Below, piece by piece: positions 7,589 through 47,115 of a stretch of DNA of 47,623 nt (position 1 is its first letter; each line of letters starts with the position of its first letter). The notes under the pieces are model-generated. The model did no database searches. It saw only the letters and a list, made by a program, of their open reading frames with translations, and was not told where the DNA came from. Source of the stretch: a phage. The position numbers and the translations under genes are program-made. The stretch lies in the sequence record PZ445468.1; one strand, 5' to 3'.

Positions 7589-8029
7589 ATGAAACTATCG
7601 CAACGAGGTAAAAATTTCATCAAGTCATTCGAGGGGCTTGAACTACGCGTTTATCCAGACCCAGCAACTGGCGGCGCACCATATACAGCGGGTTACGGTC
7701 ACACTGGCGGTGACATAAAGCCCGGCATGACGGTAACACAAGCAATGGCTGACGCATGGTTTGATAAGGATGTGGAGAAGTTCGAATCCGGCGTATCCGC
7801 GCTACTAACTGCGCCAACAACCCAGCCACAATTTGATGCAATGGTGTCTCTGGCGTACAACATCGGACTAGGTAACTTTGGTAAATCCACACTCCTGAAG
7901 AAGCACAATGCTAAATGCTACCAGTGCGCCGCTGGTCAGTTTCCTTTGTGGAATCGTGCTAATGGCAAGGTTATGAATGGATTAACGCGGAGGCGTAACG
8001 CGGAGCGCGCTATGTATATGGGGCAATGA
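7589..8029 (+). CDS. endolysin (GH24 T4-lysozyme-like)
   Basis: FEGLELRVYPD...GYGHTG motif typical of phage lysozymes. Confidence 0.85.
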   Translation: MKLSQRGKNFIKSFEGLELRVYPDPATGGAPYTAGYGHTGGDIKPGMTVTQAMADAWFDKDVEKFESGVSALLTAPTTQPQFDAMVSLAYNIGLGNFGKSTLLKKHNAKCYQCAAGQFPLWNRANGKVMNGLTRRRNAERAMYMGQ

Positions 8030-8265
8030 AAAAGCTAAGCAACTGGCTGCTCGGCGTGTGGATTTCGTTCTGCTCGCTGTTGCAGTTATGGCCTGATGCA
8101 ATGATGCATGTATGGGTAATGATGCCGGATGACCTGAAAGCGGCGCTACCGCCAATCGTGGTTAAAGGGGTGAGCTACTCAATCATGCTGATTGGCATCC
8201 TCGGCAAAATGCACGGCATGAGGAAAGAAAACCGGAGGCTGCGCGATGATGGCAACTCTCATTAA
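8026..8265 (+). CDS. putative holin / lysis membrane protein
   Basis: two hydrophobic segments and charged C-terminus; sits between endolysin and spanins. Confidence 0.4.
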   Translation: MKKLSNWLLGVWISFCSLLQLWPDAMMHVWVMMPDDLKAALPPIVVKGVSYSIMLIGILGKMHGMRKENRRLRDDGNSH

Positions 8266-8743
8266 ATACTGGCGACCGCTGGCAATTATTATAATTGTTG
8301 CCGCTGGAGCGCTGTGGGTGGCAAATAAGGTATCCAATTATGGTGAACAGCAATATGCCGATGGATATGCAAAAGCCATTGCCGAACAGAAGGCCGCAGA
8401 AGAACAAGAGGAGCAACGACGCAATGCAGAACTGCAAAAGATTCATGCCGACGCACAGCAAAGGATTGACGCTGCGCGTAATGATGCTGTTAATGCTGCT
8501 ACTAAGTCTGGCAGGTTGCAGCAACAGCTCGCAAATATCCGCAAGCAGCTCGTCGGATATTCCACCGCTGAGTCCATTGGCAATCCAGCCGCAGAAACCG
8601 GAGTTTTGCTTGCCCAATTGCTCTCAGAATCTGTCGAAAGAAATCGACAGCTGGCAGATTACGCTGACAGGGCCAGAGACGCAGGATTAGCGTGTGAGGC
8701 GCAATATAATTCATTGAGAGCGAGAAATGCTAAGCAGAGATAA
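8246..8743 (+). CDS. i-spanin (Rz-like)
   Basis: N-terminal TM segment, Q/A/E-rich coiled-coil periplasmic domain. Confidence 0.6.
   Translation: MMATLIKYWRPLAIIIIVAAGALWVANKVSNYGEQQYADGYAKAIAEQKAAEEQEEQRRNAELQKIHADAQQRIDAARNDAVNAATKSGRLQQQLANIRKQLVGYSTAESIGNPAAETGVLLAQLLSESVERNRQLADYADRARDAGLACEAQYNSLRARNAKQR
8445..8690 (+). CDS. o-spanin (Rz1-like lipoprotein), embedded in +1 frame
   Basis: signal peptide with lipobox LSLAGC, Pro/Ser-rich mature part, fully inside i-spanin gene. Confidence 0.6.
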   Translation: MPTHSKGLTLRVMMLLMLLLSLAGCSNSSQISASSSSDIPPLSPLAIQPQKPEFCLPNCSQNLSKEIDSWQITLTGPETQD

Positions 8744-8874
8744 GCGAAAAGAATATGACAAGATGGCTTCTGATGTGGTAAGTGGTCGCGCTGGTTATCA
8801 GCCTGCGGTGAAATGCAGGCTAAGCAAATCGCCAAAGAAATGCTATGGAAAACCACCTGAATCACTGCGCAATA

Positions 8875-8898
8875 AAAAACCCCTCAATTGAGGGGTTT
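8875..8898. terminator. rho-independent terminator
   Basis: AAAAACCCCTCAATTGAGGGGTTTTT. Confidence 0.7.
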
Positions 8899-8906
8899 TT
8901 CTTATG

Positions 8907-8930
8907 AGTCAGCGATTCGCAGTCGCTGAC
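8907..8930. repeat. perfect 9-bp-stem inverted repeat
   Basis: AGTCAGCGA-ttcgcag-TCGCTGACT, no flanking U-tract. Confidence 0.6.
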
Positions 8931-9026
8931 TGCTACCAGAAAACATGTACCGAAGCTCACGTTGTCGTTACTTATAGCAAAGTAATAGTAGCAATAACCT
9001 TTCCCTGCGTCAACTCCATGCGCAAT

Positions 9027-9055
9027 AAAAAAACCCCGTAATGGGGCTTTGTTTT
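9027..9055 (-). terminator. rho-independent terminator for minus-strand operon
   Basis: CCCCGTAATGGGG hairpin with A7 on plus side (U-run on minus transcript). Confidence 0.65.
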
Positions 9056-9260
9056 AGAACTGAGTAATGCGAGCGTCTAAAATATTCCCATAGGTTCGCA
9101 TTGCGTTAAGTTGAGTGAAGAGTAGATGCTTTTCAATTTCAGGAAGAAGCATATATTCAGGATTATTTTTGATAAAGGCATCAAGCATTTCCGCCCTTCC
9201 CCATAAGTCGCGAGCCTCATCAATAACTCTTTTTTGGTAAGGTTTCATTTCTTTAGTCAT
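9054..9260 (-). CDS. hypothetical protein (68 aa)
   Basis: ORF. Confidence 0.45.
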   Translation of the reverse strand: MTKEMKPYQKRVIDEARDLWGRAEMLDAFIKNNPEYMLLPEIEKHLLFTQLNAMRTYGNILDARITQF

Positions 9261-47016: not shown

Positions 47017-47115
47017 CTGATTTATAATAATCAATGCGGCTAGGGGGCACCCGAAAAGCGACTCATCACCGCCTGCCGCATTCACTTCAATGATGCCCTG
47101 ATGAGGAAGCTATAT

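Follow-up and report, generated by a model that had tools for sequence, protein, structure and literature searches.

A Cassette at the Lysis/Early Junction of a Virulent Siphophage May Encode an Orphan Antisense RNA from an Undescribed Plasmid Toxin/Small RNA Family

The 47,623-bp stretch of phage DNA analyzed here (sequence record PZ445468.1; the window) comprises the entire genome of Escherichia phage TanjaMuster_Bas81 (PQ850630.1, BASEL collection; Bas81 below), rotated by 1,048 bases. The element in question sits where the plus-strand lysis operon meets the convergent, leftward early operon. The lysis cassette comprises an endolysin gene (7589 to 8029, plus strand), a holin gene (8026 to 8265, plus strand), and, as its last gene in the GenBank annotation, an Rz-like spanin gene (8246 to 8743, plus strand), while the last gene of the early operon is Bas81_0025 (9054 to 9260, minus strand). 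Between the operons lie two terminators, each preceded by the same leader, and a spacer that holds a hairpin. We argue that these sequences delimit an inserted cassette that is very probably a small RNA (sRNA) gene related to sequences found on plasmids.

The shared leader reported in the preliminary description is real: the two copies of TGCGCAATAAAAAA are identical and each runs into CCCC, and a repeat search extends the direct repeat to 35 nucleotides (nt) at 74% identity (8866 to 8900 versus 9019 to 9053). We estimate the chance expectation of an exact 14-mer repeat within 500 nt at about 5e-4. Copy 1 (TGCGCAATAAAAAA, 8866 to 8879) can be read on both strands: the plus strand shows the final codons of a spanin-type gene, the minus strand the U-tail plus trailer of an sRNA terminator, UUUUUUAUUGCGCA. 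Copy 2 (TGCGCAATAAAAAAA, 9019 to 9033) was delimited by the repeat search and by comparison with relatives; here the minus-strand leader serves as U-tail of the terminator of the early-left operon. Each copy leads into a hairpin that lies between an A-tract and a T-tract, which is the arrangement of a bidirectional intrinsic terminator, and both hairpins have the GC-rich stem and directly adjoining U-run of Rho-independent terminators. Terminator 1 (8875 to 8900, both strands) is a perfect palindrome, 8875 to 8887 with 8888 to 8900, and folds as a 12-bp hairpin made of a 6-bp GC core (CCCCTC/GAGGGG, 8880 to 8895) and an A/U extension, followed by T5 on the plus and T6 on the minus strand. It is predicted to end both the lysis transcript on the plus strand and the sRNA on the minus strand. 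Terminator 2 (9027 to 9055, both strands; core stem CCCCGTAATGGGG, 9034 to 9046), the ancestral one for this junction, was called on both strands by the terminator scan. It is stronger on the minus strand, where 8 pairs are followed by T7 and the early-left operon ends, and weak on the plus strand, where the T-tract is broken. The spacer does contain the perfect 9-bp-stem hairpin noted earlier, formed by 8907 to 8915 with 8923 to 8931 around a 7-nt loop; the end first given, 8930, was one base short of the actual 8931.

The alignment with related phages that the preliminary description called for separates relatives with and without the extra unit. The leader occurs only once in Vi II-E1, Sa179lw, ZCKP8, and many Klebsiella phages; their spanin genes end ...CTGCGCAATAAAAAAGCCCCGTAA in a hairpin of the terminator 2 type, and the early-left genes follow directly after this lone terminator. 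Judged from these sequences, the ancestral junction is one terminator, and the clade of Bas81, Skatevirus, and DS8 has an extra unit of about 155 nt. A 402-nt contig from a wastewater metagenome, which has 1 and 3 differences to Bas81 in its two flanks (99% identity), fuses position 8866 to position 9022; further wastewater metagenome contigs fuse the spanin end to terminator 2, and relatives of Seszw_1 show an equivalent 154-nt skip. Since the distant relatives are single copy and the unit is missing exactly between the repeats in a near-identical phage, the unit is an inserted cassette. Five distinct variants of it occur in GenBank phages: those of Bas81, vB_CECAV_048 (identical in INT55 and INT59), NX263, DS8, and Seszw_1 (identical in ZK22).

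Two records that were compared and about 60 others, all named “Mutant Salmonella phage seszw,” are genome-reduced clones whose sequence stops a few bases before terminator 2, so that the cassette is kept and terminator 2 and the next gene are gone. In one of them, clone 110L, an A of the promoter spacer is changed to G. The genome reduction study behind these clones (CiPGr, PMC9825161) targeted annotated genes only and contains no transcript data; because of this targeting, retention of the cassette in the mutants is uninformative on whether it is needed.

On the minus strand, a promoter scan of the cassette gave TTGACG-17-TGcTACTAT, a sigma-70-type promoter (8985 to 9013) with the −35 element TTGACG at 9013 to 9008, a 17-nt spacer, TG at 8993 to 8992, and the −10 element TACTAT at 8990 to 8985. 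Its 9/12 match is not significant by itself (2 sites versus 2.9 expected). Among the five phage variants, however, none of the 6 positions of the −35 element and none of the 9 positions of TG plus −10 (8993 to 8985) vary, while 8 of 14 spacer positions do (8994 to 9007; 14 of the 17 spacer positions were counted). Downstream, 2 of 36 positions vary in a core at 8940 to 8975, 3 of 18 in the stems of the hairpin, and 5 of 7 in its loop. Invariant hexamers and core next to a variable spacer and loop are the pattern expected of a promoter followed by a structured minus-strand RNA. The predicted sRNA is about 105 nt long (8874 to 8978, minus strand), with its 5′ end at G8978 and its 3′ end in the U-run after terminator 1. 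It folds as a free 5′ tail, stem-loop 1 (SL1; 8938 to 8967, within the almost invariant core), which has a UUCG loop and two G·U pairs, stem-loop 2 (SL2; the 9-bp hairpin, 8907 to 8931), whose 7-nt loop is inverted between variants, and the terminator (z = −4.8). The scar and the terminator-bounded RNA that the preliminary description had offered as alternatives were thus each right in part and are one thing, the repeats being the edges of an inserted cassette that encodes a predicted promoter-to-terminator sRNA; that the RNA lies on the minus strand, that the leader is made of spanin codons and a minus-strand U-tail, and that plasmids carry homologs of the RNA as a putative antisense RNA had escaped it.

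The same anatomy is found in a set of 12 sequences comprising the phage variants and their plasmid counterparts described below. TTGACG-17-TAnnAT and the G at the predicted start are kept in all 12, although the spacer sequences of phages and plasmids are unrelated, and each of the 12 has, as far as its sequence tells, a promoter and a terminator of its own, as befits an antitoxin sRNA. Each also folds separately into tail, SL1, SL2, and terminator. An IncX1 plasmid copy has a hairpin of unrelated sequence at the SL2 position, and six unrelated terminator sequences occur among the 12 variants. A covariance model built on the set, R1, has one match in the window, at 8870 to 8978 on the minus strand only (112 bits), and zero matches in the single-terminator relatives. 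In the minus sense, 90.7% of helix cells are paired (29 G·U), versus 80.1% (4 G·U) in the plus sense, and the minus sense is higher in 12 of 12 sequences, which are related to one another and so allow no clean significance test. Searches of the window and of the plasmid locus against Rfam, at gathering and at permissive thresholds, gave sub-threshold, terminator-driven matches only. Identity with RNAI (RF00106) was considered and rejected: the match at 8871 to 8951 on the minus strand scores 26 bits against a gathering score of 47, and true RNAI genes lie elsewhere on the plasmids concerned. Public RNA-seq (wastewater “RNA-Seq” runs and isolate transcriptomes) is available as assembled contigs without strand or local depth and is uninformative here.

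Plasmid relatives were reached through the loose ends of Logan contigs that contain the hairpin and the core, which led to a contig of Kluyvera cryocrescens and four metagenome contigs and from there to the plasmid database PLSDB. Scans of IMG/VR, metagenome contigs, and species genomes for exact matches to the core pattern had returned Seszw_1 and DS8 only, because each plasmid relative differs by a base or an indel; the loose-end sequences had no true match among GenBank phages and in IMG/VR. The module is present on 68 of 72,556 PLSDB plasmids (Escherichia, 32; Salmonella, 25; Shigella, 5; Klebsiella, 3; and one each in three further genera), in 40 of 5,426 complete E. coli genomes, always on a plasmid, and in 1 of 401 species genomes of the family. 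The phage element is 84 to 92% identical to the plasmid copies over 8896/8907 to 8986, which is the predicted RNA body up to the −10 element.

All non-phage copies whose flanks were read adjoin a small open reading frame (ORF), and 49 of the 68 plasmid records cover at least 80% of a 381-nt query made of RNA plus ORF. In the phage plus orientation, the plasmid locus runs from a predicted extended −10 promoter (TGATATAAT in small plasmids) through a bidirectional terminator hairpin of unrelated sequence, the hairpin and core, the opposite-strand promoter (TTGACG-17-TAAAAT/TAACAT/TAATAT, with a spacer unlike that of the phage), and a Shine-Dalgarno motif to an ORF for a hydrophobic peptide of 33 to 36 amino acids, e.g., MAELLTAFIKAPLISQVLTIILCLIFVVHSLLN, and a terminator. 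The RNA gene is situated 60 to 80 nt upstream of the small ORF on the opposite strand. The peptides follow the pattern M[AT][ED][VL]LTAFI...QVLT..L, then a hydrophobic tail. Their ratio of nonsynonymous to synonymous substitution rates (dN/dS) is 0.10 to 0.43 at a synonymous divergence (dS) of 0.6 to 2.7, indicating purifying selection, and a Shine-Dalgarno-like motif precedes the start; the ORF thus has the selection and translation signals of a small hydrophobic protein of the type I toxin kind. The peptides have no match in Pfam, NCBIfam, or PADLOC, including the Hok, Ldr, TisB, and Ibs models, and their motif was not found in any paper in our literature search. If the toxin mRNA starts at the predicted TGATATAAT, the phage RNA would be complementary to its leader over 84 to 92% of positions, with 40 nt of perfect complementarity to the 2.6-kb E. 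coli plasmid type. Homology and gene order give the plasmid locus the layout of a type I toxin-antitoxin system, in which the small ORF would be toxic and would be repressed by the RNA.

The plasmids that carry the module include ColE1-like plasmids of 1.9 to 2.6 kb, which have a true RNAI elsewhere (92.6 and 98.5 bits), and large plasmids, where it lies beside higBA; a Kosakonia plasmid carries it beside hicAB, and IncX1 plasmids near relE/parE and dinQ. IncX1 plasmids with a diverged copy of the module have, within 2 kb, both a RelE/ParE pair and an annotated type I toxin of the dinQ type, which together make up a small cluster of addiction modules (NZ_AP022652.1, at 1329 to 1412 of the locus analyzed). 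In Salmonella and E. coli, the module takes up about a fifth of the ColE1-like plasmids of 1.9 kb. On NZ_CP117695.1 (1,888 bp), it occupies 481 to 840 and is immediately preceded by a cer-like XerCD site, GGTGCGGGCAA-CGGATG-TTATGGTAAAT (413 to 440); the RefSeq annotation shows neither the RNA nor the small ORF. Contig depth over the higBA region adjoining the module was about 17-fold that over the module itself in one transcriptome. A contig from the same transcriptome stops at locus position 1523 (within 1494 to 1523) and continues into adapter, as if the RNA had a sharp end at the shared terminator.

Alleles of the element from phages and from plasmids are interleaved, and the four-gamete test fails for 34 of 153 site pairs. 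Seszw_1 has 3 differences to the 1,888-bp Salmonella plasmid and is equally close to DS8. Bas81 is closest to the Kluyvera-type copy, and its RNA starts with 40 nt that match a 2,573-bp E. coli plasmid exactly. The hairpin loop (8916 to 8922, plus strand) occurs in two forms that are exact reverse complements of each other: Bas81 shares TTCGCAG with the plasmid copies of the Kluyvera type and of Kosakonia, and CTGCGAA is the form of Seszw_1, DS8, and the plasmids of 1,888 and 2,573 bp. Flipping of the hairpin thus occurs in phages as well as in plasmids. Polymorphisms common to phage and plasmid copies are a dinucleotide at the 5′ end, a G/A site in SL1, and the stem and loop-orientation variants of SL2. 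They suggest repeated gene conversion between infecting phages and resident plasmids, by which a putative antitoxin mimic would be kept matched to local toxin alleles.

What the phage carries is the RNA half alone. Its cassette ends at terminator 2 after the −35 element, where there is no small hydrophobic ORF and hence no complete toxin-antitoxin module. Inserted as about 155 nt into a single bidirectional terminator between the converging lysis and early-left operons, the cassette would use its sigma-70 promoter to produce an RNA of about 105 nt from G8978, terminated at terminator 1 in the minus direction. On plasmids, the related RNA would repress the small toxin-like ORF by pairing with its leader. 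During infection of a plasmid-bearing host, the phage RNA might pair with the same leader and replace the labile host antitoxin RNA when this is no longer replenished, so that the toxin would stay silent and toxin-mediated abortive infection, or killing of the postsegregational type, would be prevented. We favor, with somewhat better than even confidence, an orphan antitoxin RNA cassette aimed at a plasmid addiction or abortive infection system as the best explanation overall. Neutralization of a plasmid toxin as the role of the RNA is a more tentative assignment, which we place slightly short of an even chance, and the complete picture, a virulent siphophage with a type I antitoxin mimic in the form of an orphan antisense RNA from an undescribed plasmid toxin/sRNA family, is more tentative again.

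Toxin-antitoxin systems are a known bacterial defense against phages, some of which counter them with antitoxin mimics. The type III antitoxin ToxI acts by binding its toxin protein, and Dmd of phage T4 is a protein antitoxin mimic directed against RnlA/LsoA. The closest precedent for the role proposed here is pseudo-ToxI of the lytic phage PhiTE, an RNA mimic of the antitoxin of a plasmid-borne type III ToxIN system by which the phage escapes abortive infection, according to Blower et al. (2012, PMC3475682). That case was shown experimentally, whereas the role of the Bas81 RNA is inferred; in contrast to ToxI, the Bas81 RNA would base-pair with a toxin mRNA, as type I antitoxins do. A preprint describes an antitoxin mimic of phage ICP1 against DarTG. 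In the cases of Dmd and of the DarTG mimic, a replacement antitoxin supplied by the phage likewise keeps host shut-off from freeing the toxin, but both are proteins acting on protein toxins, unlike the antisense RNA considered here.

Among type I systems, hok/sok of plasmid R1 and ldr/rdl of E. coli resemble the plasmid module in having a small hydrophobic ORF (33 to 36 amino acids here) with a Shine-Dalgarno motif, a terminator, and a long leader, opposite which an RNA (about 105 to 110 nt here) is encoded that has an unpaired 5′ tail, several stem-loops, and a Rho-independent terminator. The plasmid modules also lie beside other addiction modules, among them higBA, hicAB, and relE/parE. They differ in that peptide and RNA match no family in Rfam, Pfam, NCBIfam, or PADLOC, the RNA spares the ribosome-binding site, and the phage copy is without its toxin partner. 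RNAI of ColE1-type plasmids is similar to the Bas81 RNA in length (about 105 nt), in its three stem-loops and free 5′ tail, in being antisense, and in occurring on the same small ColE1-like plasmids; the low score of the Bas81 RNA and the true RNAI elsewhere on these plasmids mark the module as a separate gene and not the copy-number RNA. OOP of lambda and sar of P22 are small phage RNAs antisense to genes of their own phage. Like these and like phage morons, the cassette is a promoter-gene-terminator unit between operons, patchy in relatives and predicted to be independently transcribed, but the Bas81 RNA is without a target of more than 13 nt in its own genome and its relatives are plasmid borne. 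Our literature search turned up no type I antitoxin mimic described for a phage. If the proposed role is true, silencing of a type I toxin mRNA by an antisense RNA would be a new class of counterdefense and would be indirect evidence that the type I modules of small plasmids act against phages in nature. The findings also point to an unannotated toxin/sRNA family on clinically common plasmids of E. coli, Salmonella, Shigella, and Klebsiella that current annotation misses. Bas81 grows on E. coli K-12, so the idea is open to testing with standard strains.

The spacer has also been annotated as coding. The preliminary description called it noncoding, and this holds in part: GenBank lists two small plus-strand coding sequences (CDSs) in the region, one of which, Bas81_0023, is real, while the other, Bas81_0024 (8904 to 9041, plus strand; 45 amino acids), which fills the spacer, is in our judgment not a gene. 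That Bas81_0024 encodes a protein is very improbable, even though its frame is open in all five phage variants, CDSs of this type are annotated in two GenBank records, and in Bas81 the sequence GAGGGG stands 8 nt ahead of the ATG. That candidate ribosome-binding site belongs to terminator 1, whose 3′ arm it forms. Seszw_1 and DS8 have GCC in place of the ATG, so the start is lost in two of the five variants, and in the same two phages the 3′ end shifts frame and alters the C terminus. All substitutions in the central core alter an amino acid in this frame, and pairwise dN/dS is 0.3 to 1.2 at a dS of 0.11 to 0.29, lower than the dS of the neighboring genes; among those neighbors, a gene for 102 amino acids has a dN/dS of 0.03 to 0.14 at a dS of 0.33 to 0.61 and the spanin gene a dN/dS of 0.12 to 0.37. 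The Kluyvera-type plasmid homolog has three separate 1-nt deletions across the region, and the 45-amino-acid ORF has no match in Pfam, NCBIfam, or PADLOC. The annotators of DS8 placed a CDS on the opposite strand, and five records annotate nothing there. With its start not conserved, its frame broken in a plasmid homolog, and its dN/dS high relative to neighboring genes, Bas81_0024 was rejected as a protein gene; it and its counterpart in vB_CECAV_048 are probably misannotations of an RNA gene on the opposite strand.

An unlikely account, yet one with several observations behind it, is that the cassette is an inert passenger, a plasmid fragment captured at terminator-like sequences and spread by recombination in its flanks, of no use to the phage. 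It would fit the presence and absence of the cassette among otherwise near-identical phages, the lack of significant covariation, and a junction that is a recombination hot spot, having taken up an HNH gene in Seszw_1 and ZK22 and a small gene like that of a Klebsiella phage in Bas81. It does not lead one to expect that the RNA half alone would be retained, neatly bounded from promoter to terminator, or that the −35 and −10 elements would survive although the sequence between them is wholly replaced relative to the plasmids; nor does it predict that the hexamers and the core stay invariant in five phage lineages, whose neighboring genes have dS values of 0.24 to 0.94, while spacer and loops vary. 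The selected trait might instead be terminator 1 itself, added as a strong plus-strand terminator that stops lysis transcription from running antisense into the early-left genes, with the RNA incidental. The 6-bp GC-rich core of terminator 1 with its T-tracts on both strands and the broken plus-strand T-tract of the ancestral terminator speak for such an insulator; a terminator alone needs about 30 nt, however, not 155, and the conserved promoter, the 36-nt core, and the plasmid homology would be left unexplained, which makes this quite improbable. We give equally little credence to a trans-acting regulator of host chromosomal or phage genes that has nothing to do with the plasmid ORF. The architecture is that of a generic sRNA, with a conserved 5′ region, an A-rich stretch before the terminator, and a U-tailed terminator. 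Yet a k-mer scan for complementarity to the RNA elsewhere in the Bas81 genome found no stretch longer than 13 nt, the 13-mer lying in the terminator tail, and the constant company of the small ORF beside the non-phage copies, along with the coverage of the RNA-plus-ORF query, also speaks against this reading.

Several points weigh against the favored explanation, an RNA directed at a plasmid toxin. The near-identical wastewater phage does without the cassette, and the rarity of the module (68 of 72,556 plasmids, 40 of 5,426 E. coli genomes, and 1 of 401 species genomes) makes it a narrow target for a phage countermeasure. The antisense overlap depends on the predicted upstream promoter, which is clear in the small plasmids only, and the predicted RNA does not reach the ribosome-binding site of the small ORF. 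Transcription of the phage RNA and of the plasmid RNA is predicted from sequence. Covariation in SL1 and SL2 is not significant, the 2 compensatory pairs being reached in 232 of 500 shuffles, and the DS8 and Seszw_1 copies contain mismatches; support for a conserved structure comes instead from the G·U strand asymmetry and from the hairpins of unrelated sequence at the same positions. An initial, significant-looking covariation signal was discarded, since it came from a reverse-strand self-match row in the alignment.

The junction has gained other genes as well. Bas81_0023 (8727 to 8891, plus strand; 54 amino acids) is a homolog of gp0018 (MLNKEKREEYDRMAANVALGRAGYQPARKSRYSKS...) of Klebsiella phage vB_KpS_GP-1, to which it has about 68% nucleotide identity. 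It is inserted at the end of the spanin gene, whose ancestral 3′ end now supplies its final nine codons, SLRNKKPLN, with the stop codon falling within the loop of terminator 1. The spanins of vB_CECAV_048, NX263, and DS8 still end ...SLRNKKPLN* (CTG CGC AAT AAA AAA CCC CTC AAT TGA) inside terminator 1; compared with these, the C-terminal tail of the Bas81 spanin has been swapped by the mosaic insertion, and its new end is ...SLRARNAKQR. In Seszw_1 (locus positions 1974 to 2530) and ZK22, the spanin gene is followed by an HNH homing endonuclease gene and then by a nonfunctional remnant of the canonical spanin 3′ end, and the functional spanin has diverged strongly in its C-terminal half (nonsynonymous divergence, dN, of about 0.3), as expected of endonuclease-driven co-conversion at the same junction. 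The junction is a general recombination hot spot. Far from it in the window, at 47033 to 47096 on the plus strand, is a match to the int-alpA RNA (RF02996) that scores 42.6 bits, above the gathering score, and is unexpected for a phage described as virulent.

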